UHGV virus genome: UHGV-1652841
Strand: one strand, 5' to 3'
DNA length: 18,432 bases
Origin: a virus
In this document: positions 729-18,432 of the stretch, one piece after another
How positions within the stretch are numbered: the stretch's first letter is position 1
How the letters are laid out: each line of letters starts with the position of its first letter
Notes under the pieces: generated by a model
The model's input: the letters and a program-made list of their open reading frames with translations, nothing else
Database searches by the model: none
What the model was told of the DNA's origin: nothing
Translations under genes and position numbers: made by a program

Positions 729-1337
729 CTACGCCTCCGGCAGTTCAGGCCAGATGACATCCGGCGCGGTGCTGGTATCTGTTGCCGTCACCGCGTCAAT
801 GTAATCCAGCGCAGCGTTAAGTCGGGCGGTTTCTGCCTGCGTCAGATTCCGTCCGGCCCGTAATTTCAGCTGAATCAGACTAATGGAAGCCATTGCTGCA
901 TCAATCAGTGACTGGCGCTTTACTTCTGCCGCGTCTAGTGCGGCACTATGCTGTGCATCGGCATCCGTCACCCATTTTTGGCCATCCCATTTGTCGTATG
1001 GCGTATCAGGTGCTTTGGTGGTGGTTCCTTCCGGGTATTCTCCCAACTGTGAAACTGCCACAGGTTCTCCAGTTTCCGTGCTGTAAACGGTTTCGCCGCG
1101 ATGGTCTGCAACATATTCCCAACCGGTCAAATCAGCCGTCCGGCAAACAGCAAAGCCGTCCTTTTTGCTGATTGGCGCATCCACGCACGAATTGCCTGGA
1201 ACACCAACGCCAACGGGAAGATATTCAACAGATAAACCGATATATTCACGCGTCACGCCATCGTAATTATAAACAGTGATAACCCCAGATTCCGTGGCGA
1301 ACCCGTTTTCATCCAGGTTGATTTCTTTTGTGGTCAT
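729..1337 (-). CDS. Tail fibre assembly protein (Tfa chaperone)
   Basis: 202 aa; position directly downstream of the fibre gene; C-terminus ...DVIWPELPEA typical of Tfa proteins; start ATG overlaps the fibre stop. Confidence 0.8.
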   Translation of the reverse strand: MTTKEINLDENGFATESGVITVYNYDGVTREYIGLSVEYLPVGVGVPGNSCVDAPISKKDGFAVCRTADLTGWEYVADHRGETVYSTETGEPVAVSQLGEYPEGTTTKAPDTPYDKWDGQKWVTDADAQHSAALDAAEVKRQSLIDAAMASISLIQLKLRAGRNLTQAETARLNAALDYIDAVTATDTSTAPDVIWPELPEA

Positions 1338-2883: not shown

Positions 2884-4079
2884 GAGGTCACCGTGATACT
2901 GATATTCGCGGTGCTACAGGACGCTGAAGCATCATAGGCAATATCAATGTTTGATGCCGATACGCTGCCAGACGACTTACCGATCAGCAGGTCGGTAATA
3001 TCGTAATAGCGGGCATTCCCGCCGCTCACAACGCCGAGGTTTGCCGGGGAATAAATACGGCTCAGCAGAACGTCGTCGCCAATTGTTAGGCCATTTATAT
3101 AATCGGCAACAGCCTGTTTAATCTGCTCGCCGATTTGAGAGGTATAGCCGGTAAAAACTTTCAGGGTAATGGCTACGAAAATTGGCACATCGGTAGAGCG
3201 CGAAAAACTGATGACGTGAGGATTACCATAAGTATCCGGCACTGTGACAGAAGTTTTACCGTAAGTTGCGGTTCCCTGCCCTTTATTCCCCCTGATGGTC
3301 TGGGCTATCTCGGTAACATCCCCTCCATCGACGATGGCGGAAATAGAGTGTGGCGGCAGCCCGTTGCTGTCGGTTGCCCCAGTATCGTTCTTATATAGTT
3401 TGTGACGTGTCACGCCAGCAACATTAGCGATAGCACCGTCGACACCTTCAAACGGTGTGATCGATGGTAGCGCGACGCTTTGCCCCTGCCGAATGCGCAG
3501 CTCTGCGTCGGTTTCGGCTGGTGAACCGACAGTAGCCGCAACTGGATTGGTTACCGACACCCAACCTCGGGTCGGGGTGTTGATAGTGGTAATAGTCCCG
3601 GCCAGCGCCGCAACCGAACCGCTATTCGCACATGTGGCCGTCACCAGCACAGTACCATCAACGCCGATCGCTACACTTGCGGGAAAATTCCAGATAATGC
3701 CGTTTTTATCCCGTGCGGAGCCATTCGTGATAGTCGTGCCTGCCGTACCGGTTAACAGAAGGTCAGCAGTAGAGTTTGTCGCTACTTTTCGCGTGATCCC
3801 GTTAATTTTCACATTGCTGCTAAGCGCTGCGGCCTGCGCTGTCGTCGGTGAAAAAGAGTTGTAGATCCCGATAGCGGTGTTGTTAGCGTCATGCACGGCA
3901 AGAGCCACCAGCGCGACCATCTGCCCGTCTTTGCTGTCTGGTTCGAGGTAGGCATCACTACCGTAAATCTGCCTGAAATAGCTGGTCAGTGTATCTAGGA
4001 TTGTCTGGTAATCAGGCGCACTAATCCCCTGGGCGGTTACCGTTGCCGATAGCCCCAGCGTGTCGAGGTTCAAAGCCAT
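2880..4079 (-). CDS. Baseplate J-like protein (Mu gp47 / P2 gpJ family)
   Basis: 399 aa; order in the tail operon after the W-like gene; N-terminal region resembles baseplate J family; ATGA-type overlaps on both sides. Confidence 0.75.
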   Translation of the reverse strand: MALNLDTLGLSATVTAQGISAPDYQTILDTLTSYFRQIYGSDAYLEPDSKDGQMVALVALAVHDANNTAIGIYNSFSPTTAQAAALSSNVKINGITRKVATNSTADLLLTGTAGTTITNGSARDKNGIIWNFPASVAIGVDGTVLVTATCANSGSVAALAGTITTINTPTRGWVSVTNPVAATVGSPAETDAELRIRQGQSVALPSITPFEGVDGAIANVAGVTRHKLYKNDTGATDSNGLPPHSISAIVDGGDVTEIAQTIRGNKGQGTATYGKTSVTVPDTYGNPHVISFSRSTDVPIFVAITLKVFTGYTSQIGEQIKQAVADYINGLTIGDDVLLSRIYSPANLGVVSGGNARYYDITDLLIGKSSGSVSASNIDIAYDASASCSTANISITVTS

Positions 4080-4433
4080 TTATGCCTCGCTTGTTACAGT
4101 CGTCTGGCCGTAGATTGTGTCAATGGAGGAAGTGAAGGTGACGCGACGGCTGGTGCCGTCATAATTGGTATCGAAGGAAAGAATCGACAGAACGCCCGGT
4201 GTATCCTGTATGCGTTCGCGTATAGCCAGGATGTAGACATCTGATCGCTGCTTCCCAAGCACTGACTGAACATACGGCGTGCCTTCCGTCAGATCGAGAA
4301 ACCACTGACCGCGCCACAGCTCGAAACGGGTTTTTACGGCCTGGGCGACACATTCCGGACTGTCGATAAGGAAAGTATCGTCACCCTGGCCGAAAGTGTA
4401 ATCGCCTTCAGTATCTTCGCGACGGTATCGCAT
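4080..4433 (-). CDS. Baseplate wedge protein, gpW / Mu gp46-like
   Basis: 117 aa ORF between the spike and J genes; size and position match the W-like baseplate component. Confidence 0.55.
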   Translation of the reverse strand: MRYRREDTEGDYTFGQGDDTFLIDSPECVAQAVKTRFELWRGQWFLDLTEGTPYVQSVLGKQRSDVYILAIRERIQDTPGVLSILSFDTNYDGTSRRVTFTSSIDTIYGQTTVTSEA

Positions 4434-5173
4434 TATTGCGGCCCTCCGGTAGTTCCCCCGCCAGTCTGTACTCCGCCATGTTTATGCGTGGCGACACTGA
4501 TACCAGAAGCTGTTACGTCATTCGTTACCGTCACCGGCCCAAGCATCGTCGCAGTACCGCCGCTTTCGCCCATTCCCTGAGACAAGTTGCCATTAATCGT
4601 TACGTTGCCGTTCAGCGTGATAGTCGGGGATGTGATTGTCGTTCCACCTTCAGCCGTAGCTGTAAGCTGGCCCGGTGTTTTAATGGTGATGTTATGTCCT
4701 GCGGCGACTTCTACAAACGCCGCACCATCATCGGTTCGCAGCTGCGCGGCGCTGGTACTGATACCGCTGATTTTCCGTGCTTGCGACTGTGGGCCAACGA
4801 TGGCGAACGCATCAGATAAGTCATGCTGGCGCGGGTCGACGGTCTCCTGCACGCCGCCGCTCTGCCACCAGAAATCGATGCAACGGTCGGCAAAGAGCAG
4901 CAGGCACTCGTCGCCTTCTTTAACCGGAAAAGTCAGCGTACAACCGCCGCCACGCGGGAAGATAACCGGCACATCCACCAGCGGTTTTAATTCGGTGGAG
5001 CCATCGCCAACGATACCGCGAAGCGCTACCTCTACCGTGCAGGTAACAGTGTCAGGATCGAACGACTGAATGATGCCGGGCATCGCTACGCGCATCTGGG
5101 TAGACACCGAATCGGCAATGGCCTGCGCGGTCTGCTGCTCACCGCCGATCTGTGATTGAGTTGGAATTGGCAT
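4433..5173 (-). CDS. Baseplate spike / assembly protein V-like (Mu gp45 family)
   Basis: 246 aa; N-terminal region (GIIQSFDPDTVTCTVEVAL...) followed by a Gly/Thr-rich repetitive C-terminus (TITSPTITLNGNVTINGN...GGGTTGG) typical of gpV/gp5-like spikes; GGGGG Shine-Dalgarno-like stretch 5 nt upstream. Confidence 0.75.
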   Translation of the reverse strand: MPIPTQSQIGGEQQTAQAIADSVSTQMRVAMPGIIQSFDPDTVTCTVEVALRGIVGDGSTELKPLVDVPVIFPRGGGCTLTFPVKEGDECLLLFADRCIDFWWQSGGVQETVDPRQHDLSDAFAIVGPQSQARKISGISTSAAQLRTDDGAAFVEVAAGHNITIKTPGQLTATAEGGTTITSPTITLNGNVTINGNLSQGMGESGGTATMLGPVTVTNDVTASGISVATHKHGGVQTGGGTTGGPQ

Positions 5174-5181
5174 AAAACCCC

Positions 5182-5208
5182 CATAAAAAAACCAGCCGAA
5201 GCTGGTTT
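5182..5208 (-). terminator. Intrinsic terminator-like hairpin on the minus strand, immediately upstream of the spike gene start
   Basis: Perfect 8-bp stem AAACCAGC / GCTGGTTT with 4-nt loop, followed on the minus strand by TTTTTTTAT. Confidence 0.5.
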
Positions 5209-5395
5209 GGTATCAATTATCTCTTAGTAACTAAGCTACATCAGTGTGAAGTAAGGCTTTTCCGCTGCAATGGCACACATTCACAATGTGTATTAGGATA
5301 TGTTTGCAACAAGTAAGCATTGAAAATCAATTTCAGCCATGAAGCCGCCATAGAGTGGACCTGCACCATCGCATTATTGACTACAGGAGTAACAA

Positions 5396-5686
5396 ATGGG
5401 ATTTAGATTTCGTAAAAGAATCCGGATTGCGCCCGGACTCGCGATCAACATTAGTAAAAGCGGAGTAAGCACTTCAATTGGTGGTAAAGGTTCCACCATT
5501 AACATCGGGAAAAAAGGCGTAAAGATGACAAATGGCCTTCCCGGCACGGGGCTGTCGCATACCACTAACCTTTACTCTCCCGGGAAATCGACAGAAAAAA
5601 AACAACTTACTCATAAGCAAAAAATAATTAGAAACATCCTGTTCGTAATTATTGTGTTTATTATAATTAAAGCTCAATATTTTTGA
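5396..5686 (+). CDS. Small tail-anchored membrane protein with DUF4236-like N-terminus
   Basis: 96 aa; N-terminus MGFRFRKRIRIAPGLAINISKSGVSTSIGGKG...GLPGTGLS matches the DUF4236 pattern as I recall it; C-terminal hydrophobic segment ILFVIIVFIII; AGGAG 8 nt upstream of ATG; AT-rich gene on the opposite strand to the tail operon. Confidence 0.6.
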   Translation: MGFRFRKRIRIAPGLAINISKSGVSTSIGGKGSTINIGKKGVKMTNGLPGTGLSHTTNLYSPGKSTEKKQLTHKQKIIRNILFVIIVFIIIKAQYF

Positions 5687-5691
5687 CGCAT

Positions 5692-5722
5692 GCCCGCCTA
5701 TCTGGCGGGCTATTTTACTTTT
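5692..5722 (+). terminator. Intrinsic terminator downstream of the DUF4236 gene
   Basis: Stem GCCCGCC / GGCGGGC with 5-nt loop, followed by TATTTTACTTTT; lies between two convergent genes. Confidence 0.5.
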
Positions 5723-6600
5723 CGGCAGTCGTATGTTGCATACTGGCGCGGCGCGTCTATGCTGGCCTGCAACCACTGTGCGTTGAGAATAGCTTTTCCG
5801 TTGCGCTTGATGTACTCAAGCCCAACCCAGCGGCCGGGTTGATTAGTGGCAGCCATCCACTCCATCTTGATGTTATCCGGTTCCCCTTTGGTGCTACCAC
5901 CAGAGCCGATTGGGCTAATTTTTTGCGTCTCTGGTTTTGCGCCATTAATTCTGGCCCAACCATCAGCAGAAGACAGATCAATCGTATAAGGACCACAGAC
6001 TGTTTTGTAATTCACGCCAAGCTTTTCGTTACTGTGAACATTACTACTTTTCTCGTAATCAGCCTTGGCTACGTCGTTCATTTTTTGATAGATGGCAGGT
6101 TGCTTCAGCGATAACTCATTTAGCTGTTTTACAAAATTTTCTCGTGAAACCTCTGCAAGCCCCATGGGTTTTCTATCAATGATATAATCATCATAAATCT
6201 TTAATACAACAGCCGAAGAAGAAAGTTTCTTAGCTAAATCATTTACAAAATTGAGATAATTTAGCTGAGAATTATCTCTTACATCGATAGCCCTAACTCC
6301 ACCTGTGCCGTACTCATGATATGCAGCATAAAAAGCTGGTATATTCTCCGGCTTTTTATTGATTGCCTTAATCAACCCGTCAGGACCACAGATCTCGCCA
6401 CTCCAGTCAATTAGTGACTTCCCTTTAGATTTCCATGTCTGACAATCATCTGTCGATAAAATTACTATCGGCTGCCATCCTGGACGTCTTTTGTACTCAG
6501 CGTTCTGCGCGGAATTAAAGCCTGCACTCGCGCCCCCGGATAAGAGCAACCCGGAAAGAAAAAGTGCGCTATATCGAATTCCGTTCTTATTTGTACCCAC
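5710..6600 (-). CDS. Secreted/periplasmic protein of unknown function (moron cargo)
   Basis: 296 aa. GTG start immediately after the TAA stop of the hub gene, preceded by AGGAGGAAA. Predicted signal peptide (basic n-region, hydrophobic core YSALFLSGLLLSGG, ASA-GF cleavage-type site). Lys-rich and AT-rich relative to the flanking tail genes. Confidence 0.7.
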   Translation of the reverse strand: MGTNKNGIRYSALFLSGLLLSGGASAGFNSAQNAEYKRRPGWQPIVILSTDDCQTWKSKGKSLIDWSGEICGPDGLIKAINKKPENIPAFYAAYHEYGTGGVRAIDVRDNSQLNYLNFVNDLAKKLSSSAVVLKIYDDYIIDRKPMGLAEVSRENFVKQLNELSLKQPAIYQKMNDVAKADYEKSSNVHSNEKLGVNYKTVCGPYTIDLSSADGWARINGAKPETQKISPIGSGGSTKGEPDNIKMEWMAATNQPGRWVGLEYIKRNGKAILNAQWLQASIDAPRQYATYDCRKVK

Positions 6601-7668
6601 TTAATTTCCTCCTGAGCGAGCTATAGTCGACTGGCTAATCAGGTCACGAGCCCCACGCGCAAAACACATCAAATCCATGTACCACGCCTGACCTCTGGTG
6701 TCACCAGTATAATCGATAGCTTTGACGATATAAACGCCATCTGTCGCAATGCTGGCAGCCTGTGACGTTGTGCCGGTCAGTACGCGGTTGCCGTTCTCTT
6801 CTGTTTCGGTGATGCGACCGGGCGACTGTGCTATTTCGCTATTACCGAGCGCGGCGCGGTACACCGAAGCCTGATCGAGCTGGATAAGACCATTAATACG
6901 GATGTTTGGGTTTATCAGGCACCGCACGTTTACTCCGCCGCCCATCGTTTGTTGCGGCATACCGATCAGGCCAGTATCGGCATTCAACACAATGGCTTCG
7001 TGAATATATTTATCCTCCGGCACCATCTGGACCTGACCATCCACCAGCTGCCATGTCGCTTTGCACTGCGCAGCAATATTATCCATCACGTTACGGGTGG
7101 ATGAATAAATCGCACGGCCACGAGGAAACACGGTATCAGGAAAGTCACCGGTAATGCCCTGCGTCACGCCGAACGCGTTGAAATCCTGCATAGTCGCCCG
7201 GTGCAGGTCCGCAACGGTATAACCAGCGGCAAGCGTGGTGATGGTAGTCGCGTAGAGGAACGCTTCGTGGTTACTGATGGCCTGAATCAGCACCCAGGAA
7301 TCGGTGATGTTGTCCTTCCCGGTGACGGTGAAGCGAATATCACCGTCAAATATCAGGCCGTAGTTCTGACCGTTCACCTGCCCTACCTGGTCTGGTGAAA
7401 TCTCCCGGGCGACACCAACCTGGCTCGCATCAACATCCGGCGCAATACCGTCATACCCGGCAATGATGCGAATTTTTGCAAACTCCTGCCCCAGTATCTT
7501 GTTCGTGGTATCGGTCGAAAGGTTGTAAATTTTCACGTTCGCCACGCGTGGCCAGCGTGTGTCTGCCCACTCGATCTGGAACGTGACCTTAAAGTCAGAC
7601 AGGGAAACGCCCTGCCCGTTCTGGTCCAACAGTTGCAGCTCAAAATGGCGCATCCAGTTAAGAGACAT
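6601..7668 (-). CDS. Baseplate hub / tail protein (Mu gp44 / P2 gpD-like)
   Basis: 355 aa; size and position (after the tape measure and small tail genes, before the spike in the ancestral order) match the hub protein. Confidence 0.6.
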   Translation of the reverse strand: MSLNWMRHFELQLLDQNGQGVSLSDFKVTFQIEWADTRWPRVANVKIYNLSTDTTNKILGQEFAKIRIIAGYDGIAPDVDASQVGVAREISPDQVGQVNGQNYGLIFDGDIRFTVTGKDNITDSWVLIQAISNHEAFLYATTITTLAAGYTVADLHRATMQDFNAFGVTQGITGDFPDTVFPRGRAIYSSTRNVMDNIAAQCKATWQLVDGQVQMVPEDKYIHEAIVLNADTGLIGMPQQTMGGGVNVRCLINPNIRINGLIQLDQASVYRAALGNSEIAQSPGRITETEENGNRVLTGTTSQAASIATDGVYIVKAIDYTGDTRGQAWYMDLMCFARGARDLISQSTIARSGGN

Positions 7669-7670
7669 TT

Positions 7671-7976
7671 CTACTCCTGTACGAAAATGAGGTGGCTGTA
7701 TGTGCCGAGGTTGGTTTTGGTGGGCTCGTCTGGTGCGCCCTTATCGGTCGCCACCACCAGCGCGCCATCAATGCCAAGCTGTGGATATTGTCGTAAAAGG
7801 TTTACGCCGGTCAGTAGAGGTACGCCAGAGAGAAGCGCGGCACCGCCGCTATCCATCACGTCCATAATCCAGCCAGCCGCATCACGTCAGATGATCCTGA
7901 GTGTATACGTGGTATTGCCCAGCAAAACGCGGAACTGCTGATTGTCAGGAGAAAGCGGTATTTCGTTAAACTGCAT
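7671..7976 (-). pseudogene. Small tail gene with an in-frame TGA (codon 30 of 101); nonsense pseudogene or two mini-ORFs
   Basis: One continuous frame from ATG at 7976 (overlaps upstream stop as TGATATG) to the stop at 7671, just before the hub start, interrupted only by TGA at 7887-7889. Conceptual product MQFNEIPLSPDNQQFRVLLGNTTYTLRII*RDAAGWIMDVMDSGG... Confidence 0.4.
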
Positions 7977-7977
7977 A

Positions 7978-8580
7978 TCATCCCCCGAATGCTGATGTAA
8001 CGCTTCCGCCCAGCTGGCTCAGCAAGGATTCGTTTGGCGGTGTAGTGGATTTCATCCCGGAATTCTGCACCGCCGATGTGCTGACGCCATCCTGCATATC
8101 TGATTTATCTGCAACGCTAACGCTCTGCGTCTGCGACATGATCACTTCACGCAGGGTAAGCGTGCAGTTCAGCACGTTCTCGCTGGTTTTATCCGTTGTC
8201 ACCTCGATGGCTCGCACCAGCATATTGCTGTAAACCCGCTTTCCGGTCACTACATCGAACGGCACCCGAGAGGACTGGAGATCCAGTAGTTGCTGATAGG
8301 TCTCTTTCGGGCTAAGTCCGGCGCTGAGGCCGATTGACGATGTATCAATGAAGTCCAGCAACGAACCGCCACCTGCGAAGCCGCATTCCATCGTGACTTC
8401 GCTGGGGCGCTTATACGCATGATCGGCGATGAAACCCGACGCGCTATTCGTTGTTGGCTTCTCCACCGGGTGCTCAGTAATTTCGAGCGCATCAGAATGC
8501 TTTTCGGAAACGACCACGCTGGGGATCAGCAGGCCAATTCGCCGGGATTGCTGGCGAAAAATCGCTGATAAAATATCCAT
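7978..8580 (-). CDS. Tail protein occupying the position of the Mu gp43 (DNA circulation-type) gene
   Basis: 200 aa; start ATG overlaps the tape-measure stop (TAATG). Family assignment is uncertain; the call is mainly positional. Confidence 0.45.
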   Translation of the reverse strand: MDILSAIFRQQSRRIGLLIPSVVVSEKHSDALEITEHPVEKPTTNSASGFIADHAYKRPSEVTMECGFAGGGSLLDFIDTSSIGLSAGLSPKETYQQLLDLQSSRVPFDVVTGKRVYSNMLVRAIEVTTDKTSENVLNCTLTLREVIMSQTQSVSVADKSDMQDGVSTSAVQNSGMKSTTPPNESLLSQLGGSVTSAFGG

Positions 8581-10217
8581 TATCTCGGTCCTGCGGGGAG
8601 TTGCTGGGTTAACTGTGAATTCACGCCCTTTTGACGGTCAACAGTCAAACGGGCAGCCTCGCGCGGATCGGAAACGCCGTGGATGTTAATGTTCGTTTCC
8701 TGCTGAATCACCGGGGCGCTGGTGGGCATATTGCTCATCACTTTCGGAATGTAGTTGCGCGTTTCCTGCGGCATTAGCCCCATTCCATAACGCTTAACAT
8801 TCCCGATCCCCCAGTTATATGATGCCAGTGCTTTGCTAAGGTCTCCGCCGTTCTGCCGCAACAGCTGGCTGAGGTACTTAGCGGCTGCCTGAGCTGACTT
8901 TTCCGGGTCGAATACATCATTCCCACGCAGGCCCATGTCGCGCGCCGTGCCATCCATAAACTGAAACAGTCCTTTCGCGCCTGCGCCGGATATGGCGAAC
9001 TGGTTACCACCCGACTCGGTGATCGCCACGCTTTTCAACAGGCCAGCTGGCAGCTGATAAAGCGACTCCAGTTTATTGAACATTGGCCCCATCCAGTCGA
9101 GCAATACCTTGCCCTGGGCCGTCGCCTGAGGTCGCTTAACCGACTGCGCTCGCTGCTCCGGCTCCAGTCCCATCTCCTGAATTTTTCGCTGGATTTGCTC
9201 ATCAGTGAAAAAGTCTTTGCCGGGATTTTCCTTTCTCAGCGCCTCATATGCCTGCTGCCTTTCAGGTACGATATTGCTGCCTATACCGCCAATCGACGCC
9301 ATTTCTTCACTGGTGGTCGGCGTATTGTTGGCAGGAATGAACATAAGCAACCATGGATTCTTGATTGCCAGCTGTGCGATCCCCTGCGCCAGCTTACCCA
9401 GCCCACCAATAGAGCCGCCAATTGCCTTACCAAGCCCCATAAATCCGGCGACAAGTCGCCCGATGCCAGTGAGCATGGAGACCAGCTTCGCACCAGCCAG
9501 AAAGCCAAACAGGATGGTGAGCGTATTTTTCCAGCCGCCGAGGTTGTCCTTGAGCTCCAGAAACTTATCGCGCAGCCACTTGAACACCTTCTTTGCCTGC
9601 TCAATTTCTGGCTGCCATTTGGACCAGTCAATCAGGCTTTTACCGCCCTCTTTCCACGTCTGGTAATCGTCGTACAGCAATCCGATCGCCAGAATCAGTG
9701 TGGTGATAATTCCAATCGGGGATTTCAGGAACGCAGAATTAAGCAGACGCCATGCGACCAGTAGAGCACCGAATATTTTCAGCAGATTTTTACTGCCATC
9801 GTCAAGACGCTTCCACCAGTCGATGACAGAGCCAGCGCCCTGTATCAGCCGCCACGCCATTCTCGTGAATGCGTTCGCAAGCCAGATCACGCCTTTAATA
9901 ACTCTGGTCAGCGTCTCTTCAATCTTCGGGAAATTGTCGAGGATGCGCCGCCGCAGGCTGTCCAGCGAACCAGCCAGGCCACCAGCGAGGTTTGAGCCGA
10001 TCTTGTCCCGCATGATGCCGAACAGCGACGTAAGCCCGCGCATGGACGTCATGAATTTGTTGGACTGAACAGCCGCTTTATCAGCGTTGAACCCTGTCTT
10101 TTGCAGCATCGACTGGTAATCGGCGGTAAAGCCATTCATGCCGCGCCGCATCGCCATCAGCGTGTTTTCATCGATGCCAAGCATCTGCGCGTATTGTTTC
10201 GCGCGGTAATACGGCAT
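8580..10217 (-). CDS. Tail tape measure protein with C-terminal lytic transglycosylase (SLT) domain
   Basis: 545 aa; central hydrophobic segments; C-terminal SLT-like motif ...VAITESGGNQFAISGAGAKGLFQFMDGTARDMGL...YNWGIGNV; position upstream of baseplate genes. Upstream context is a deletion junction, so the N-terminus may not be native. Confidence 0.75.
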   Translation of the reverse strand: MPYYRAKQYAQMLGIDENTLMAMRRGMNGFTADYQSMLQKTGFNADKAAVQSNKFMTSMRGLTSLFGIMRDKIGSNLAGGLAGSLDSLRRRILDNFPKIEETLTRVIKGVIWLANAFTRMAWRLIQGAGSVIDWWKRLDDGSKNLLKIFGALLVAWRLLNSAFLKSPIGIITTLILAIGLLYDDYQTWKEGGKSLIDWSKWQPEIEQAKKVFKWLRDKFLELKDNLGGWKNTLTILFGFLAGAKLVSMLTGIGRLVAGFMGLGKAIGGSIGGLGKLAQGIAQLAIKNPWLLMFIPANNTPTTSEEMASIGGIGSNIVPERQQAYEALRKENPGKDFFTDEQIQRKIQEMGLEPEQRAQSVKRPQATAQGKVLLDWMGPMFNKLESLYQLPAGLLKSVAITESGGNQFAISGAGAKGLFQFMDGTARDMGLRGNDVFDPEKSAQAAAKYLSQLLRQNGGDLSKALASYNWGIGNVKRYGMGLMPQETRNYIPKVMSNMPTSAPVIQQETNINIHGVSDPREAARLTVDRQKGVNSQLTQQLPAGPR

Positions 10218-10323
10218 GTTGTTGAGCTTTTGCCCAACCCGCCCTGATAGCTGCCTGTGTGGCGTTTAAATCTTTCAGGTACTCACGGGCAAACAGCTCT
10301 TGTTTGTCGGTGAGCTTTGCCAT
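10174..10323 (-). pseudogene. Terminase small subunit, N-terminal stub (about 28 native residues, then out-of-context sequence)
   Basis: MAKLTDKQELFAREYLKDLNATQAAIRAG matches the conserved N-terminus of P27-type terminase small subunits; after AAIRAG the frame reads WAKAQQHAVLPRETIRADAWHR-stop. No terminase large subunit, portal or capsid genes follow. Confidence 0.6.
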
Positions 10324-10675
10324 TGTTGGCTCCGTTTATCCGTTAAAAGGGATATCAGTTAAGTTATCCCGTGCAGGGTATAAGCCATTGTCGAGACCAC
10401 TCATTGAATGGCCTCTGCAATAACCGATGTCTTTCCATCAGCCCGCCACCACAAAGAATCTTTTTTGCCATAAGGCTGGAGGTTCATCTTTCAGTGGCTG
10501 CCAGTGTTATTTCCCCACTTACTGGCTTGGGTTGCTTCGTGGTACTGCCGTAACTGGTGGTGCACAGATTTAGTTAAATCTGTTCTCGCCTGAACTATCT
10601 TTTACATACCCGGATTGTGGGGATGTAAATCACGGTTTCATTATCAAGCCCACCCGTAGATGGGCTTTGTAATGG

Positions 10676-10933
10676 CTACTTCGCTTTTGCTTCCGCTCGC
10701 TTACGCCGGCGCTCTTCTTTCCTCTCGGCTTTTGCCATGTCCATGAATGCCTGCATGATCGAGTTCCGCATCATGTAGCTAACAAAGTGATGATTGACAC
10801 AGCCGTTGAGGCGCAGCTGCTCGCCAAACTCATCCACCGAGGCCAATGCTTCCCTCATGCCCTTCTCGCCTTTCATGAACTCTGAGAAGTCGCGCCCCGC
10901 TCTGGAGGCGCATTCAATGACACGATCACTCAT
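10676..10933 (-). CDS. Hypothetical small phage protein
   Basis: 85 aa ORF with basic C-terminal tail; start overlaps the stop of the upstream KilA-N gene; followed by a 7-bp-stem hairpin (AAGCCCA / TGGGCTT). Confidence 0.45.
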   Translation of the reverse strand: MSDRVIECASRAGRDFSEFMKGEKGMREALASVDEFGEQLRLNGCVNHHFVSYMMRNSIMQAFMDMAKAERKEERRRKRAEAKAK

Positions 10934-11427
10934 CCCGGAAGCCCGGGGATCGTAATCTGCAGCTGGTTAGCCAGGGAGTTAATCTCAGCGACCAACACTG
11001 GCTTCGTATAGCGCCATGCTGCCAGCCCTTGTCCGCAGAAGCTCGCCATGTCTTTCTTCTGGTCAAACTCATGACATTTCATGTTGAGCTGCGCACTTAA
11101 GCTGTTGCGATGCTGAAGTTCTCCGGTGAAGTAGTCATCGAGGACTTTATAGGCCGCGTACTTGAACCCGGGGTTTAACCAAGCCGCATAATCGTAAGCA
11201 ACAAACTTCCCGCCATATGTTCCACCGTGTACACCGCGCTCAGTAAAAACCACAGATTCGTGGTTTTTCTCCAGCTCGGCTAAGAACTCTTTGGTCTGCT
11301 TGTTTCGCAGGTAGTGGTAAGGCGATTCAGATTCACTTTTACCACTAGCTTTCCACATATCAGTGAGGCAGATCATGCCATCTTCACCGATACGAATTGG
11401 TTGATTGAAGAGGGTTAATGATTTCAT
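10930..11427 (-). CDS. KilA-N domain protein
   Basis: 165 aa; N-terminal ...QPIRIGEDGMICLTDMWKASGK...GGTYGGKFVAYDYAAWLNPGFKYAAYKVL fits the KilA-N pattern. Confidence 0.7.
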   Translation of the reverse strand: MKSLTLFNQPIRIGEDGMICLTDMWKASGKSESESPYHYLRNKQTKEFLAELEKNHESVVFTERGVHGGTYGGKFVAYDYAAWLNPGFKYAAYKVLDDYFTGELQHRNSLSAQLNMKCHEFDQKKDMASFCGQGLAAWRYTKPVLVAEINSLANQLQITIPGLPG

Positions 11428-11541
11428 AGCGTGTACCTACTCTTTGAAATGAACCTTTGCCGCACAGGAAACCAGCCCACCGAGGCTCGCCAGCACTAAC
11501 TGGTATCCTCAAAGGCCCATTCCAAAGGGGCAGGTTCGGTG

Positions 11542-11597
11542 TAAAAAACATGCGTTGCGGTACGCATTTATTGCAAAAAGCCCCGCATCGCGAGGCT
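11542..11597 (-). terminator. Two tandem intrinsic terminators downstream of the lysis cassette
   Basis: Minus-strand hairpin GCCTCGC-GAT-GCGGGGC followed by TTTTTG, then hairpin ATGCGT-ACCGCA-ACGCAT followed by GTTTTTTAC. Confidence 0.5.
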
Positions 11598-11628
11598 CAT
11601 TAAATGGACTTTGTGATTTGCAAAAAAA

Positions 11629-12096
11629 TTATTTCAGGCATTGCGTCCTGATGTATTCCTGCAGGTAGTTAACCTGCGCGGTTATCTTGTCGATTCCACT
11701 TCGTAGACGGTAATAATTGAGTTCAGCATCTGCTGTAAGTCTTGGGCTTTCTCCATCGCCCATGCTGCTGGCTCCGGTCGTTGACTTTGCACAGGTGGCG
11801 GCGACTTGCAGGCGCTTACGGCCAGCAATGACATCGCTATGCAGACGCTCAATGGTTTCTTTCGCATCAGCCAGTTCTCCGGTGTATTTGGCATCCAGTG
11901 CAGCGACATCACGCTGGCGGGTCTGCATGTCTTTAATGGTGGCGGTCGCCAGGAGGAGTTTCTCAGTGGCCTTATCGCGCTGGTCTCTGTAAGTGATGGC
12001 GTTGTCGCGGTAGTGGTTCACGAAGAAAGCCAGTGCGCCGATTAACGCCAGCACCAGCAACTGCAGCCAGTAACGCTTAACCAGTGCGCTAATCAT
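11629..12096 (-). CDS. Rz-like i-spanin
   Basis: 155 aa; N-terminal TM segment then ...[14 protein letters not shown]...[22 protein letters not shown], very close to lambda Rz; ends ...YIRTQCLK; ATGA overlap with endolysin. Confidence 0.85.
11682..11867 (-). CDS. Rz1-like o-spanin lipoprotein, embedded in the +1 frame of Rz
   Basis: Embedded ORF; probable start [20 protein letters not shown] (lipobox VSAC) followed by a proline-rich segment [12 protein letters not shown], as in Rz1. Confidence 0.7.
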
Positions 12097-12542
12097 GACA
12101 GGAACAGAGCTCGCTCTGCCTTGCGGCGATTCGTGAGCCCCGGCATCACCTTTCCGCCTGATTTATTCCAGCGCAGAAATTCATCTGCCGCGCCTTTTAT
12201 ATCGCCAGCATTCAGCTTTTTCAGCAGTGTAGATGTGGAAAGAGCACGCGACCCAACGTTGTAAGCGAACGACACCAGTGCGTCGAACTGGCCTTGTGTC
12301 AGCTTCACCCTGACAACTTTCAGCACGTCATTCTCATAACCAACAAGCCCTGTTTTCAGAAGCCTGTCAGCGGTTTGCTGGTCGATAGTCATACCGCGCT
12401 TTACTGGCTTTCCGTCAACCGGATGGGTCCAGCCATAGCCGATGGTCCACGGCGCATCTCCCGTTCCGGGGTCGGGGTAAGCAGTCAGCCGACAACCTTC
12501 AAATTTTTTTATCAGAGCAATTCCGTCAGGACTGGTTTGCAT
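12093..12542 (-). CDS. Endolysin, T4-lysozyme-like (GH24) family
   Basis: Resembles P22 gp19-type lysozyme (…[18 protein letters not shown]...GYG...[11 protein letters not shown]). Likely start is MQTSPDG (12542), overlapping the holin end; the listed ORF extends to 12614. Confidence 0.85.
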
Positions 12543-12858
12543 CGTCAACTCCCGCCTTTTTTGCTGCAAGTTTTTTAATAAGATTGCCGATCGAATCGGT
12601 GCCGATGTATCCAATAAAGACGCTGGCTATGTAGGCGAGGTTGCTGCTCAGGCCGATAAAGTCCAGAAGGTCACGAACGAACCAGGCAATCATCGCGCAC
12701 ATCAGCGCATCAATTAGCGTTTTTGTTACCGCGCCGCCGTTATAGCGACCACGCAGATACGCCATGATAAAAGCCAGCATTGCACCAATACCCTGCTCCT
12801 TGGCGGCAAGTAGCGCAGCGATGAAATCTTGTTTGTATGGCATTTTCATAGGCCTCAC
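12526..12858 (-). CDS. Holin (lambdoid class, dual-start motif)
   Basis: 110 aa; ...[26 protein letters not shown]...[16 protein letters not shown]... closely resembles lambdoid-prophage holins; N-terminus MRPMKM offers alternative starts; GGAGGT SD upstream. Confidence 0.85.
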
Positions 12859-13057
12859 CTCCGATTTTCCGGATGGTGCTGTGTGTGTGTTTGAAAAGGG
12901 TCAGGCTTCACGGGCTGGATTTATCAACAAAGCACGTAGCGGATGATTCCCGTGAGCCTGAAATTGATGAATATGTCTGAAATAACTAGACCATTAGTAA
13001 AACAACTCGATAAATGTGGTTAAATGAGACTACGTTCTCACAACTTAATTAGTACCA

Positions 13058-13228
13058 ATGATTATCAAGCCCTGCCCCTACTGCGGAAAGTTAATTAACC
13101 CAGAATCACTTGTGTGTAGCCACTGCCGGATAGTGAATCCTTTTGTGAAGGCCAGCAGAAGAGAAAAAGCGAAGAATGTATTAGTAATCGCTCTCGTTGC
13201 TGCTTTTTTAATTTGGATGATTCTCTGA
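13058..13228 (+). CDS. Small zinc-ribbon, tail-anchored membrane protein (not in the supplied ORF list; under 60 aa)
   Basis: 56 codons: MIIKPCPYCGKLINPESLVCSHCRIVNPFVKASRREKAKNVLVIALVAAFLIWMIL; CPYC...CSHC zinc-ribbon spacing plus a C-terminal hydrophobic helix; AT-rich context; weak SD. Confidence 0.4.
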   Translation: MIIKPCPYCGKLINPESLVCSHCRIVNPFVKASRREKAKNVLVIALVAAFLIWMIL

Positions 13229-13259
13229 GTTGCCAGTTTTCAATGAAGATAATGCGGGC

Positions 13260-13286
13260 AAAAAAAGCCTGCTCGGACGAACAGGC
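13260..13286 (-). terminator. Intrinsic terminator (minus strand) in the Q-to-lysis intergenic zone
   Basis: Stem GCCTG / CAGGC with 10-nt loop, followed on the minus strand by TTTTTTT. Confidence 0.4.
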
Positions 13287-13665
13287 ATGAAAAATAACAA
13301 TACCGTCAAGGAGGTGGCGCCGGGTGCCTCCCGGTGGAACAGCCCCAGCCGACTAGTTCCGCGCAAACAAACCTGGACAAAAAAGTTTGACTGGACGCCC
13401 CGCCGCATAGGGGGATTCACCACGAACCAAAAGATAAAATCATCCGGTGACCGGGGCAATATCTAACCGGAACTTTTCAGAATCACTTATTGTTTCCTGG
13501 AGAGTACATGAGCGTTGGTGAATTCACGTGATGCTTTTGGATGAGCGCTGAACCCAAAGGTCAGTATTTTCACACAGCAATTTTGCAAAAAGCAGCGCCC
13601 ATTCAAAACCAGGTCGCTTTCCAGTCACTCCGGGGAACCCATCATCGCAGACTGGAAAGCTTTTA

Positions 13666-13694
13666 CTGGAGCGGGCAAAGGAATCGAACCTCTG
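13666..13694 (-). other. tRNA 3'-end-like fragment (T-arm, acceptor 3' strand, CCA); possible att-core or tRNA remnant
   Basis: Minus strand reads AGAGGTTCGATTCCTTTGCCCGCTCCA: canonical GGTTCGATTCC T-loop and a ...CCCGCTCCA 3' end resembling a Gly-tRNA terminus. No complementary 5' acceptor strand within about 80 nt upstream. Confidence 0.3.
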
Positions 13695-13703
13695 ACGCGC
13701 AGC

Positions 13704-13958
13704 TTATTTCCAGCTTTCGCCATTTAAGGCTGAAAGCACTGTTTGATGTGTTACACCAAACATTCTCCCTAGCCCTCTGGCTCCATAAACCTTATGTCGT
13801 GGAATGTAGTTTTCTCTGATGAACTGGACGCTGTCCATTGTTAGCTTGCTCATACCATTCAGCTCACCAGCTACTAAGTAGCTAAGGTCAAATTTGGTTT
13901 TCTGAATGTGGCATGCAGAACATAGTAGTTGGCACTTTTCAACCTCAGCATAAAACAC
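13704..13958 (-). CDS. HNH endonuclease-like remnant with C-terminal HTH-like region
   Basis: 84 aa, GTG start right after an in-frame TAG; begins inside an HNH-type zinc motif (…LLCSACHIQKT…) without the upstream HNH residues; C-terminus ...FIRENYIPRHKVYGARGLGRMFGVTHQTVLSALNGESWK resembles HTH tails of phage HNH proteins. Confidence 0.35.
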   Translation of the reverse strand: MFYAEVEKCQLLCSACHIQKTKFDLSYLVAGELNGMSKLTMDSVQFIRENYIPRHKVYGARGLGRMFGVTHQTVLSALNGESWK

Positions 13959-14165
13959 CTAATCTGAGTGATAGTGCATCTCGCTTACATTTGCTGATTT
14001 GGTGGAAGGGTCTATGTGGTCAAACTGAAGCGAATATTCGGATCCGCAACTCGCGCAACGACCACCCAACTTTTCCACGGTCTTAGCAAGCCTAGCCCTT
14101 CGATTAAGATAGTAATCTTTGCTCGGCATTTACCACCTCTACCATTGGAGCTAAACCAGCATGTT

Positions 14166-14240
14166 TGGCGGGATAGCGTGGACTCGAACCACGATAAGAA
14201 GGTTAACAGCCTTCCGTAATGACCTTTATACGACTGACCC
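14166..14240 (-). tRNA. tRNA-like element, anticodon GTT (Asn-type), imperfect acceptor and D stems; possibly degenerate
   Basis: Minus strand: GGGTCAG-T-CGTA-TAAAGGTCAT-TACG-GAAGG-CTGTTAA-CCTTC-TTAT-CGTGG-TTCGAGT-CCACG-CTATCCC-G-CCA. Perfect anticodon and T arms and encoded CCA, but two adjacent mismatches in the acceptor stem and no nucleotide 26. Lies 60-90 nt downstream of the Q gene. Confidence 0.35.
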
Positions 14241-14330
14241 AAATAAAAAAGCCACCGTTGCAACTTAAGAGTCACTAACGGCAGCTTATGCGAATAGTGT
14301 TGCTCATTTGCTCAATGATGTCAACACGTT

Positions 14331-14819
14331 CTATGCTACATGTTTAATTTTCTCTACACGTTTCCGGTTTTTAAACGCACTATCCAGAACCGGGTAAATC
14401 ATAAACAACGAGGCATTGAGGATTTCGTCAACTTCCCGACGACAGGTTGCGAGCGATGGTTTTTGAATGCGCCCTCCGCCCCGGCATAACATCTTGCGAG
14501 GTCTTGCGACGCGATGATAGTAAGATGCAATGGCGTGCTTGGAAGATCCATGGGCGTAGTAGCTGAGGAGGATGCCAAAGGCTTTCTTGTCAATGTACAT
14601 GACGGAATCGACGACCTGAGAAATCAACATTCCATCATCATCATTGCACATTGGCCTTGTCATAACTCTTCCCGGCTCTACGCTCTCCATGAACTTCGCT
14701 ATTACGCTGCTCATGCGCTTTTCAAGACGACCTGAATAAACCCATGCCCCCCACAGTTCAAGCCAGCCATTCAGCCACTCGTGCTGCTCTTTGGTGAGGT
14801 TTAGTTCTCTTATGCCCAT
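14331..14819 (-). CDS. Late-gene antiterminator Q (QuuD-like family)
   Basis: 162 aa; LELWGAWVYSG...RPMCNDDDGMLISQVVD...ILLSYYAHG matches the pattern of lambdoid-prophage Q proteins (…RWGAWAA…RPQCCDDDAMII…DYYV…); position after ninH/rusA and before the lysis genes. Confidence 0.7.
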   Translation of the reverse strand: MGIRELNLTKEQHEWLNGWLELWGAWVYSGRLEKRMSSVIAKFMESVEPGRVMTRPMCNDDDGMLISQVVDSVMYIDKKAFGILLSYYAHGSSKHAIASYYHRVARPRKMLCRGGGRIQKPSLATCRREVDEILNASLFMIYPVLDSAFKNRKRVEKIKHVA

Positions 14820-15004
14820 CGTCTTCCCCTCTTGCCCTGTTTGACCATCAGGACGCCGTTAACTATTACGTGACGCTCGCCTTTGCTGTCTCGGTTGTAC
14901 TTAAGCACTGTTCCTCTTGCGCAGGAAAGCATCCTTGCCACTTCGGTCTGATTGCCTCGTGTCTGGATAAGAAGCTCTGGTATCGTTTGAATTGTGGCGT
15001 TCAT
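14810..15004 (-). CDS. ninH: NinH-like protein
   Basis: 64 aa; …TIPELLIQTRGNQTEVARMLSCARGTVLKYNRD…HVIVNGVLMV… closely parallels lambda NinH. Confidence 0.7.
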   Translation of the reverse strand: MNATIQTIPELLIQTRGNQTEVARMLSCARGTVLKYNRDSKGERHVIVNGVLMVKQGKRGRRWA

Positions 15005-15363
15005 ACGTTCTCCAGTTCGGTGATTTTTATTCCAAGCCGTCCGCCTGGTACTTTCACGCCACGAATTACGCGAATGTCATCGAATTGCTCGTCGTCTTCC
15101 GCAAATCCGGCGTGGATAAGGGAGTCGAGTAAACCTTTCAGGATGTTGTCGAGGTCGCGGCGGCGGGAGTCTGGAACGTCTGCGATGACTTTGATGCGGA
15201 GTCGTGATTTGGTGAAAATGTCTAACTTAAGTTGGCGGATGATTTGCTGAACGTCTTTTCGGTATTTCTGGCCTTTATCGCTGATGTAGTATTGGCTTCC
15301 CCGTCTTCGCCAGTAGGTATTCACCGACGGCGGGTATGGAAGCACAAACTGATATTCGTTCAT
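15001..15363 (-). CDS. rusA: Holliday junction resolvase RusA
   Basis: 120 aa; …LPYPPSVNTYWRRRG…DVPDSRRRDLDNILKGLLDSLIHAGF..DD.QF.DIRVI…GGRL.I.ITE… is the RusA family signature with catalytic Asp residues. Confidence 0.9.
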   Translation of the reverse strand: MNEYQFVLPYPPSVNTYWRRRGSQYYISDKGQKYRKDVQQIIRQLKLDIFTKSRLRIKVIADVPDSRRRDLDNILKGLLDSLIHAGFAEDDEQFDDIRVIRGVKVPGGRLGIKITELENV

Positions 15364-15650
15364 GACTTAATCTTCCCCTCCTTCAGCAGTATCGCCTGCG
15401 TCCTGATCACGCCTTCGAGGTGGTAAAGCCTGGCGTCTTTGTTGTCGAGATTATGGGTGCGTCGGTCGATTTCATCGTGACACGCGCTACAAGCCCATGC
15501 GCCGATCAGGTCGTCAGGCTTCATTCCCGTTCCGCAAATTCCAGCCATCCGGTAATGTGCCAGAACTGTAGTTTCAGGGTTGCCATTGCATACGCCGTAA
15601 ATACGTACCTGGCATTCTCTGCCGCGCGCTTCTTTGCGTAGGTTAGCCAT
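15360..15650 (-). CDS. DUF1364-family protein (YbcO-like, putative metal-dependent nuclease)
   Basis: 96 aa; MANLRKEARGRECQVRIYGVCNGNPETTVLAHYR…CSACHDEID… matches YbcO-type nin-region proteins. Confidence 0.8.
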   Translation of the reverse strand: MANLRKEARGRECQVRIYGVCNGNPETTVLAHYRMAGICGTGMKPDDLIGAWACSACHDEIDRRTHNLDNKDARLYHLEGVIRTQAILLKEGKIKS

Positions 15651-16372
15651 TAAGCAGCCTCTCCTGTTACTTTCAGCATTCCGTTATCGAGCAACTTTCT
15701 GGTCAGCCACTGTTGACCGCGCCCGGTGATTTTTGTGGTGAACGATATCTGTATTCCGTGATTTGTATTGACCGCTGTTTCTTTCACTGTGAAATAGCCG
15801 CGATCCATATATTCCTGCATTGGCACATTGCGCCGGGAACCTGAAGCAATAAGGATTTTGTGATCGCGCATCCACGCAAACAGTTTGTTTGGACCAATAC
15901 CGACAACCTTTGCAAAGTTTCCAATCAAAATTCCGCTGGCCTCGCCAACGCGATCGGCAAACTCAACTTTAGGTGCGGCAATTGCGAGCTGGTTTTCCAG
16001 TTGCATTTTCTGCTCAGCAAGATCAGCAGCAAGGCGCAACGCTTCTGGTAGCGTTTTGGGGATATTAACCGCAGCTTCTTCAAGCTCTCGCCAGCGGTCA
16101 ACAAGGCGAGCGGTGAATTCCGGCGACAACTGGGCAACAACGACAATACTGTCTCGCTTACCTTGTTCGCCTTCGAAGACGTAATGCTCGTACTGAACAT
16201 TGAACCCTAAGTTATTGATTCTTTCGGAAACCTCAATTTGAGGAAGCCGGATAACACCATTTTTAGCCAGCGTTTCGATGGTACGTTTCACATTGTCATG
16301 ACGCTTACCAACCAACTCAGCGATTTCAATGCTTGTCATTTTGATGGCATTGCCATTTATTAACTCATTCAT
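15650..16372 (-). CDS. Phage antirepressor (Rha-type N-terminal domain plus KilAC/Ant C-terminal domain)
   Basis: 240 aa; N-terminal …MTSIEIAELVGKRHDNVKRTIETL… (Rha-like) and C-terminal antirepressor-like domain. Confidence 0.75.
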   Translation of the reverse strand: MNELINGNAIKMTSIEIAELVGKRHDNVKRTIETLAKNGVIRLPQIEVSERINNLGFNVQYEHYVFEGEQGKRDSIVVVAQLSPEFTARLVDRWRELEEAAVNIPKTLPEALRLAADLAEQKMQLENQLAIAAPKVEFADRVGEASGILIGNFAKVVGIGPNKLFAWMRDHKILIASGSRRNVPMQEYMDRGYFTVKETAVNTNHGIQISFTTKITGRGQQWLTRKLLDNGMLKVTGEAA

Positions 16373-16535
16373 CGTCTTCTTCCTCGTGCATCGAGCTATT
16401 CGGATCGCTCATCAGTTCTGCGCAGCAGTGCTCACACACGTGAACTTCCAGCACATGCAGCTTCTGACCGTAGTTAGCGCACGTTAAAGCTCGCTCGACA
16501 CTTCCTTGTTCGTAACTTCGATTTTGGTCAATCAC
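16365..16535 (-). CDS. Small Cys-rich ORF (possible zinc-binding protein); not in supplied list
   Basis: 56 codons from GTG with GAGGAAAA SD: VIDQNRSYEQGSVERALTCANYGQKLHVLEVHVCEHCCAELMSDPNSSMHEEEDDE; stop overlaps the antirepressor start. In frame with the truncated helicase after its TAG but unlike a DnaB C-terminus. Confidence 0.3.
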   Translation of the reverse strand: MIDQNRSYEQGSVERALTCANYGQKLHVLEVHVCEHCCAELMSDPNSSMHEEEDDE

Positions 16536-16556
16536 CTTGTTTTCCTCGCACGTTCT

Positions 16557-17591
16557 CTAATCGACCAGAATCATGCCAACACATCCTTTTTCTCGCTTGA
16601 TTCGACGACTTTCGCTGACGATTTGAGCCAGAGATAATCCCGGCGTGTCGTCGATGTAAAGCAGGTCGATTTCACTCAAGCGATTGGCTGTTTCGATCGC
16701 CCTGTTGAAGTCACCATCGTAATCACCCTGATAGCCGTCATCAGCGTCATTTGTCGCCGGAATGTAAAAAATATTCGGGTTAACACCTGACTTCTGTCCT
16801 ACCAGCTTTTCCAGTATCTGGTCGCCTGGCATTTCAAGACTGAACATCAGAGCGGGCTTTTTCTCATGCACTGCGCAGTTGATTGCCATCTGGCTGTATA
16901 GCGTCGTTTTCCCCATCTTAGGGCGAGCGCCAATGACGAACAGAGAGCCTTTCACCAGACCTTTCGGTGACAGCATCCTGTCCAGAGATGGGATCCCTGT
17001 GCTCATTCCTCGTTGTTCGCCTGACGGGTCAAATCGCTTCTCAAGGTCGCTAACCCAGTCTTCCATGACCTCACCAAATGAGCGAAGGCCGCGACGCGAT
17101 CCGGTTTTTGCATGGTCTGTCAGTTGCGTGAAAATCGCCTGAATAGCTTCGTACTTCTGCGTTGCAGTCATTCCGTTGCGGGAATAGAGCAATTCCGTCG
17201 CTTCAGTCATGCGGTTGATGGCGTAGCGTTCCATTGCGGTTTCACGAACCTGCATTGCATAGGCAACGATGTTTGCTGCGCTTGGCGTGTTCTTTGCGAT
17301 CTCAGCGATATAAGCAAAACCGCCAACAGACGCCGTTAACGATTTACGCTCCAGTTCATCGAAAAGCGTCAGGCCATCTACTGGCTTTTGCTCCCGGTGC
17401 ATTCTGGTTATTTCTTCGAAAAGGATTTTGTGTGGTCGGCTGTAAAATGAATCAGGCTTCAGCATCGCCAGAACTTTCTGGACGCGCTCACTGCTGTCAT
17501 CATCCAGAAGCAATCCACCAATCACCGCCTGCTCTGCCTCGATGCTATGGGGCGGCGCATAAAAATTATCGGTCATCGTGTTCACCCTCAC
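16557..17591 (-). CDS. DnaB-like replicative helicase, C-terminally truncated
   Basis: 344 aa with DnaB N-terminal domain and Walker A (GARPKMGKTT); ends ...GCVGMILVD-TAG where intact DnaB-family proteins continue (…IDYLQLM… and about 130 more residues). Confidence 0.8.
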   Translation of the reverse strand: MRVNTMTDNFYAPPHSIEAEQAVIGGLLLDDDSSERVQKVLAMLKPDSFYSRPHKILFEEITRMHREQKPVDGLTLFDELERKSLTASVGGFAYIAEIAKNTPSAANIVAYAMQVRETAMERYAINRMTEATELLYSRNGMTATQKYEAIQAIFTQLTDHAKTGSRRGLRSFGEVMEDWVSDLEKRFDPSGEQRGMSTGIPSLDRMLSPKGLVKGSLFVIGARPKMGKTTLYSQMAINCAVHEKKPALMFSLEMPGDQILEKLVGQKSGVNPNIFYIPATNDADDGYQGDYDGDFNRAIETANRLSEIDLLYIDDTPGLSLAQIVSESRRIKREKGCVGMILVD

Positions 17592-18258
17592 GAACTTTCA
17601 GGTAGGTATTATCGTTAAGCAGGAAATCAAATCCCTTTTTGTGCCAGACGGTTCCGCGTTGATGGTTTGGGCGCTCTTCGAACATCCATCGGCAATTTTC
17701 GCCAACGTAGCTCAAATAATTTCTCCAGTCCTGCATCGTGAACCCATGCCCGTCAAGTTGGCGTGTTATTACTCCGGCTTTGCGCCAGAACGTTCGGATC
17801 TGGTTTTTACGCTTGTCATTCAGTGCGCGGATTCTTGGCGCTTCAGGAAGGATTTCGTGGTAAGCATCGACAACATCCTGACAGCTGACGGAAGGTTTTT
17901 TCTTGTCAGACTTTTTGTCTGCTGTGGCACTCTCTAATACGTCAGTATTAGAGATATTATTTATATTATTGTTTATGGACAACTGTTGGACAACCGTTGG
18001 ACAATCTCCGCTGAGAGCCGCACCATTACTGGTGTTTGCGTTGGACAACCGTTGGACAACCGTTGGACAATTTTTTGACTGAAAATCGTCATATTTAACG
18101 ATTGTAAACAGGCTAAATTTCTTCCCCATCGCGCAAATATTAAGCATCCCTTTCGACTCAAAAGTCCGTAATAAGCTCCGAACTTTGTTGTCGGGGATGA
18201 ATGTTTCTCTGACCAGCGACGGGCGTCCAGTTGTCCGATAGCTCCCTGTACCGGGCAA
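17566..18258 (-). CDS. Replication initiator (lambda O-like organisation: ori iterons inside the coding region); 5' end probably not native
   Basis: 230 aa ORF overlapping the helicase gene by 26 nt; contains six phased iterons in frame (CPTVVQRLSN repeats); the first codons are antisense to the integrase remnant. Confidence 0.5.
   Translation of the reverse strand: MPGTGSYRTTGRPSLVRETFIPDNKVRSLLRTFESKGMLNICAMGKKFSLFTIVKYDDFQSKNCPTVVQRLSNANTSNGAALSGDCPTVVQQLSINNNINNISNTDVLESATADKKSDKKKPSVSCQDVVDAYHEILPEAPRIRALNDKRKNQIRTFWRKAGVITRQLDGHGFTMQDWRNYLSYVGENCRWMFEERPNHQRGTVWHKKGFDFLLNDNTYLKVREGEHDDR
17976..18070. repeat. Origin-like iteron array: 6 x TGGACAA in two triplets, all on an 11-bp register
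   Basis: Copies at 17976, 17987, 17998, 18042, 18053, 18064 (11-bp spacing within triplets, 44 bp between triplets); flanked by AT-rich stretches on both sides. Confidence 0.75.
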
Positions 18259-18432
18259 CGAGTCGGTGATTTATGCGAAATGAAGTGGTCTGATATCGTA
18301 GATGGATATCTTTATGTCGAGCAAAGCAAAACGGGCGTAAAAATTGCCATCCCTACAACATTGCATGTTGATGCTCTCGGGATATCAATGAAGGAAACAC
18401 TTGATAAATGCAAAGAGATTCTTGGCGGAGAA
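18250..18432 (+). pseudogene. Lambda-family tyrosine integrase, internal fragment (5' truncated; continues beyond window end)
   Basis: TGQRVGDLCEMKWSDIVDGYLYVEQSKTGVKIAIPTTLHVDALGISMKETLDKCKEILGGE is nearly identical to the middle of lambda Int as I recall it. Similarity starts abruptly near 18250; upstream in-frame sequence is unrelated and the frame closes at a TAA at 18172-18174. Confidence 0.85.

Follow-up and report, generated by a model that had tools for sequence, protein, structure and literature searches.

The window, by which we mean the whole 18,432-nt stretch of DNA that was analysed, carries near its right end a joint at which two truncated phage genes meet. When the window was compared by megablast with 5,426 complete E. 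coli genomes and 50,697 phage records, the two sides of this joint gave independent sets of matches. The first set covered an O-like replication initiator gene on the minus strand (17566–18235), and among the matches listed the homology stopped at 18235, with a few matches ending at 18232. About 2000 E. coli records and about 120 phage records matched this segment at 98–99% DNA identity, and the relatives included Sf6 gp43, Huey, HK106, mEp506, strain 64 and many prophages. The second set was confined to 18249–18432 on the plus strand and corresponded to a lambda-type int gene. This segment was identical to the int gene of an E. coli KTa005 prophage (184/184 nt, 100%, E 2e-90), 98.9% identical to phage Huey and 96.7% identical to lambda (J02459 nt 28259–28076), so that lambda nt 28259 is the counterpart of window position 18249. 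Judged by sequence comparison, the onset of the Int similarity at 18249 is abrupt and, with E values of about 1e-90, far past chance. The initial annotation had placed this onset near 18250, in agreement with the nucleotide searches, and had described int as lying directly against the O-like gene; the two do meet at one joint, but 13 nt of filler (18236–18248) separate them. The earlier start coordinate of the feature, 18172, is the TAA from which a stop-free frame runs into the int remnant; up to the remnant, this frame consists of O-gene antisense and filler, not int.

The filler, CGATAGCTCCCTG, fits neither parent. It aligned neither with the continuation of the O gene nor with the int sequence upstream of the break, and by eye it agreed with the flanking int and O parental sequence at 4/13 and 3/13 positions, which is the chance level. 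A search of the breakpoints and of the missing early genes, as present in Huey, KTa005 and Sf6, gave no source matching it at 10/13 positions or better, and the 10/13 matches that turned up are no more than chance would give. Within the window, the filler came closest to TGATAGCTGCCTG (11/13) at 10245–10257, a native terS sequence located 7 nt from the terS/tape-measure junction described below. A templated copy should be exact, and this likeness is therefore probably a coincidence; it is odd all the same that the best partial match adjoins the element's other junction. A possible slipped alignment of the filler to a second CAGTTATC repeat in the O gene was rejected as too weak. The joint as a natural mosaic boundary of a variant O allele was likewise rejected, since all matches stop at 18232–18235. 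There was no microhomology between O and int at the joint, and a scan for promoters and terminators around it scored iterons only, at the level expected by chance.

The int remnant (18249–18432, plus strand) was identified by megablast, BLASTP and Pfam (PF00589). The first matching residue in BLASTP was T209 of lambda Int, and 146 of the 148 residues from T209 to K356 were identical, the part beyond the window being taken from a sister contig (L004). Residues T209–E269 are encoded within the window, and K356 and the stop codon are reached in the sister contigs. Residues 1–208 are absent, which means that 208/356 residues (58%) have been lost, not the N-terminal third as had been supposed, and that the back 42% of the integrase gene was retained at the joint. 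The remnant matched PF00589 with an E value of 6.9e-33 over profile positions 30–168 of 172, confirming it as int homology. In lambda Int, the arm-binding and core-binding domains comprise residues 1–169 and the catalytic domain residues 170–356. All six catalytic residues are still encoded, R212 and K235 inside the window and H308, R311, H333 and Y342 in the sister contigs. In the remnant, no in-frame ATG precedes M219, which lies past the catalytic R212, so the full catalytic set cannot be translated from it. Gene callers in three assemblies called int merely as a 67-aa C-terminal ORF, and the surviving part of the gene is without a promoter.

The O-like initiator gene was identified by DNA identity, BLASTP and PHROG 345. 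BLASTP gave 217/221 identical residues starting at residue 76 of the 296 in Sf6 gp43, and the match to PHROG 345 ('replication initiation O-like') covered profile positions 74–292 of 297. The gene thus lacks about 75 of 296 N-terminal codons and is not full-length; its stop codon lies at 17566–17568. In three assemblies it was called as a 193-aa ORF with an internal start, and what survives is without its N terminus and its promoter. A repeat search found five copies of TTGGACAAC-type repeats with 11-nt spacing at 17976–18082, a putative iteron origin kept inside the truncated O-like gene at a position corresponding to the rep_origin annotated in Sf6.

The adjoining DnaB-like helicase gene (16557–17576, minus strand) is truncated at its 3′ end and encodes 339 aa compared to 478 aa in Sf6 gp44. 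Homology to Sf6, Huey and KTa005 starts abruptly at 16558, which places a further junction at 16557/16558, and Pfam DnaB_C was matched over profile positions 1–136 of 255 only. The stop codon of the helicase was created at this junction, 22 nt upstream of ninF, and the NinB and NinE region found in the relatives is missing near it.

Sister contigs, attachment sites and gene content

A look-up of the 339-aa truncated helicase protein returned nine contigs, of which five were fetched as loci and four reached the joint. The joint, including the filler, was present base for base in ENA ERZ28810828, ENA ERZ773108, JGI 3300030379 and Logan SRR30861120. These four contigs (labelled L004, L005/L026, L006 and L007, where L004 is ENA ERZ28810828, L006 is ERZ773108, and L005, L026 and L032 are all contig Ga0167483_1001372 of JGI 3300030379) come from four samples that were assembled separately, and they are 100% identical to the window over the overlap. 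No record spanning the joint was found among the 5,426 complete E. coli genomes or the 50,697 phage records. An exact 38-mer across the joint was absent from the GTDB species representatives and occurred once in IMG/VR, in the JGI contig that had already been found. The JGI contig is 18,814 nt long and extends 62 nt past the att core at either end; ends of this kind would arise if the sample also contained cells with an empty attB, or if assembly stopped at the att flanks.

To the right of the window, the sister contigs continue with the rest of int to its normal stop, the P′ arm and core, host DNA and ybhC. Lambda and the sisters agree at every position of the P′ arm and the 15-bp core (100% identity), the attL core being GCTTTTTTATACTAA, and 529/536 positions from the int breakpoint to the att core are identical to lambda. 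On the other side, the contigs carry the tail-fibre-assembly gene, a lambda-type P arm (88% identical to lambda), the attR core, ybhB and bioA-bioD, and the host DNA beside the element matches E. coli at 99.3% identity. The element measures 18,675 bp (18.7 kb) from core to core. The sister contigs match the window at 100% identity over 321–18432, and in them the element is thus a chromosomal prophage bounded by att sites, with the 3′ end of int, attL and attR all intact. The initial annotation had proposed reading past the right end of the window for the integrase C-terminus and an att site, and both were found in this way. It had also named an intact repressor/immunity region immediately outside the window as the finding that would contradict it, and no such region was found on either side of the element in the sister contigs. 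On the host side, the aconitase-family gene adjoining ybhC (ybhJ in KTa005) was called at 352 aa in ERZ28810828 (L004 3966–5024) vs 753 aa in ERZ773108 (L006 4968–7229), and the alignment of these contigs falls into two blocks with about 1.2 kb missing in between, a host-side deletion near the prophage.

The genes missing at the joint were read from the relatives. In phage Huey, 10,177 bp lie between the two breakpoints, and this interval holds the 5′ part of int, xis, abc2, an endonuclease, SSB, Erf, kil and an N-like gene, and further a repressor, a cro-like gene, a cII-like gene and the 5′ end of O. The KTa005 and strain 64 prophages have the same kind of content between the breakpoints. 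This comparison bore out the earlier claim that everything normally located between int and the replication genes is absent. The claim that the repressor and the switch have been lost held as well, since no called gene of the 18.7-kb element gave a Pfam match to a repressor, Cro or HTH domain, and the element encodes no repressor, cro, cII, N or xis.

What was retained comprises the truncated int, O and helicase genes, NinF, Rha/Ant, YbcO, RusA, NinH, Q, the holin, lysozyme, Rz, KilA-N, a truncated terS, a truncated tape-measure gene and the baseplate, fibre and fibre-assembly genes. The truncated terS and tape-measure genes are fused at another deletion junction at 10236–10238, where the homologies overlap by 3 nt: homology on the tape-measure side ends at 10238 and homology on the terS side begins at 10236. 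The 5′ remnant of terS is a 51-aa ORF with a match to Pfam Terminase_2, and the tape-measure/SLT gene lacks about 200 N-terminal codons (PHROG 2276, positions 195–658 of 673). The element has none of the genes for the terminase large subunit, the portal, the head and the tail shaft. With essential excision, immunity, replication and virion-assembly genes all missing or truncated, the gene content is that of a defective prophage. Neither the terS/tape-measure junction, nor the helicase junction at 16557/16558, nor the O/int joint was spanned by any of the 5,426 complete E. coli genomes, and the junctions are therefore lineage-specific. Between Q and the holin gene, in a gap of 1.5 kb, lie a tRNA-Asn (GTT) gene (14166–14240, minus strand) and a match to the sRNA family STnc100 (13256–13448, minus strand; 71.7 bits, gathering score 47); lambdoid phages usually carry morons and tRNA genes at this place.

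The left end of the window differs from the sister contigs. The window opens in the 3′ end of an intS-type (argW, P4-like) integrase gene (1–406, plus strand; PF00589), of which the part in the window is 94% identical to the CX12 intS region. A breakpoint at 320/321 separates it from the sister contigs, and positions 1–320 are unlike every one of them. In the sisters, intS is reduced to its last 86 nt, which are fused to the lambda P arm, attR and ybhB. The left variant, with intS running across 320/321, was absent from 24 contigs encoding an identical tail-fibre-assembly protein, and it had no matches in IMG/VR or among the GTDB representatives. One match to it in a JGI metagenome (L024) was rejected because its context was unrelated at 94%. 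The left end may be a longer intS remnant, it may result from recombination or inversion involving an argW prophage, or it may have been misjoined at a shared repeat. One version of the second of these seems rather unlikely: the remnant in the window's own genome would have lost its attR end, and the window would be one joint of a large inversion between the lambda attB (~0.8 Mb) and argW (~2.5 Mb). Such an inversion would have arisen by recombination between prophages at lambda att and argW, roughly symmetric about the terminus, and on the K-12 map the tail modules of the lambda-att and argW prophages presumably lie in inverted orientation. The genomic setting of the window's copy is therefore established only in part: its right flank, with the 3′ end of int and attL, is read from the 100%-identical sister contigs, and its left 320 nt differ from theirs.

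Origin of the joint

The joint is best read, with a probability of about 90%, as the scar of an internal deletion in a lambda-family prophage located at the lambda att site of an E. coli chromosome; its size of about 10 kb is an estimate from relatives. The prophage would sit at the lambda attachment site between ybhC and ybhB-bioA, and the deletion would have ended at codon 74/75 of the O-like gene and at codon 208 of the lambda-type int. A deletion with these ends would have removed the arm-binding and core-binding domains of Int together with the first 39 residues of its catalytic domain. It would also have taken xis, the early-left recombination and kil genes, N, the repressor, cro and cII with the associated promoters and operators, and a quarter of the O-like protein at its N terminus. 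Two further junctions cut the helicase to 339 of 478 aa and fuse terS to the tape-measure gene. Both Huey and HK106 carry int as well as the O/helicase genes, and a single parent genome with both is therefore realistic. As to the molecular mechanism, the lack of microhomology and the 13 bases of filler lead us to infer an illegitimate, RecA-independent end joining or a template switch, possibly in more than one step.

The number of steps is where the first alternative departs from this reading. The unexplained filler leaves a single clean deletion unproven, and there is a lesser but real chance that the joint arose from at least two successive deletions, with the filler as the last scrap of what lay between, or from one deletion across tandem prophages at lambda att. 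The 13 unassigned bases and the lack of microhomology fit such a history, and the two other independent junctions in the element demonstrate that deletion recurred in the lineage. However, as noted above, comparison with Huey, KTa005 and Sf6 gave no match of at least 10/13 for the filler, either at the breakpoints or among the early genes that were lost; nor was any intermediate with only some of the three junctions present in the 5,426 complete E. coli genomes. For the element, the outcome is equal under the single-deletion and the multi-step history.

It is improbable that the two truncated genes came from different prophages, namely a P22-like argW/intS-type prophage and a resident lambda-att prophage, and were joined by a chromosomal rearrangement. 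The former would have contributed the tail, lysis and O genes and the latter the int remnant and attL, so that the int remnant would not derive from an integrase of this element at all. The 3′ end of the intS-type integrase gene at window positions 1–406 would suit this origin, and the order intS on the plus strand followed by tail to O on the minus strand is the natural layout of an argW prophage, as in CX12 and strain 64. The strain 64 argW prophage also carries torI, and the O/helicase segment is closest to Sf6-like phages. On the other hand, the sister contigs that are identical over 321–18432 place the element between lambda attR and attL. The free lambda-att phages Huey and HK106 pair the same int with the same O/helicase, Huey has an 86-nt intS remnant adjoining its att region, and HK97 pairs a related tail-fibre-assembly region with the same int. 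These cases show that such a combination is native to lambda-att phages.

Finally, an assembly chimera of two int- or O-bearing prophages in one sample is very unlikely, because, although both flanks are repeated in many E. coli prophages and such repeats are sites of short-read misjoins, the identical joint recurred with its filler in four assemblies from different samples and pipelines, and a misjoin would not add 13 novel bases.

Consequences for the element and comparison with other prophages

From its gene content, the 18.7-kb remnant is predicted to be unable to repress, excise, replicate or package. In lambda, a prophage without xis and the DNA-binding domains of Int cannot excise itself. 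Without pR and the N terminus of O, and with half a helicase, there should be no replication despite the surviving iterons, and without pR and N, the Q and lysis genes should stay silent. The selective logic of the deletion would follow from the same functions: we infer that a lysogen survives the loss of its repressor only if the lethal functions expressed from pL and pR and the O-dependent replication go too, and one deletion running from int into O would remove the repressor, these lethal functions and this replication together.

The element had been described as locked-in and cryptic. That is apt as far as the trans-acting functions are concerned, which are lost, but the sister contigs retain attL and attR intact. 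A related phage that provided Int and Xis in trans could therefore, in principle, still excise the element.

Overall, the element is an ordinary defective (grounded, cryptic) lambdoid prophage produced by ordinary prophage decay, a fresh instance of a well-known type. The inactivation of the integrase has been proposed as the grounding step on the way to cryptic prophages (PMC6379469). The element resembles the E. coli cryptic lambdoid prophages Qin (with its intQ pseudogene), DLP12, Rac and e14, which are likewise fixed remnants with an inactivated integrase, large internal deletions and scattered late, nin and lysis genes that were kept. Unlike these, it occupies the lambda attB (ybhC / ybhB) and has three junctions of its own, shared with none of the 5,426 complete E. 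coli genomes, and its two att sites are intact in the sisters.

Compared to lambda itself, the int remnant is nearly identical (146/148 residues), as are the P′ arm and core in the sister contigs (100%), whereas Int residues 1–208 are missing together with xis and the promoters from which int is expressed in lambda, and the first ATG lies past R212. For the early region of the parent, the best model at hand is offered by the free phages Huey and HK106, with 97.8–98.9% identity in int, 98.1–98.4% in O/helicase (98.1% in Huey) and an equal relative orientation of the two. In contrast to the remnant, both phages still have the early-left and immunity interval of 10 kb, their int, O and helicase genes are full-length, and their structural modules differ from the baseplate and tail-fibre module of the remnant.

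A further parallel is found in the lambda cI857 delta(cro-bioA) lysogens used for recombineering, in which the early lethal and replication functions have been deleted, resulting in a stable prophage that neither excises nor replicates. These constructs keep cI and pL, whereas the element has lost the repressor and both early promoters, and the delta(cro-bioA) deletion runs rightwards into bio, whereas that of the element runs leftwards into int.

The sequences provide a base-level record of a lambda-att prophage reduced to 18.7 kb by three deletions, and a textbook case of grounding by the loss of trans-acting functions with the att sites left intact. The element occurs in several metagenome assemblies, at least one of them labelled human gut, and in 0 of the 5,426 complete E. 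coli genomes, which makes it a possible lineage marker. Beyond annotation its significance is little; for annotators, it is a warning that the integrase and O-like ORFs at this joint should not be called genes. The JGI contig, a dead remnant, is itself listed in IMG/VR as a viral genome.
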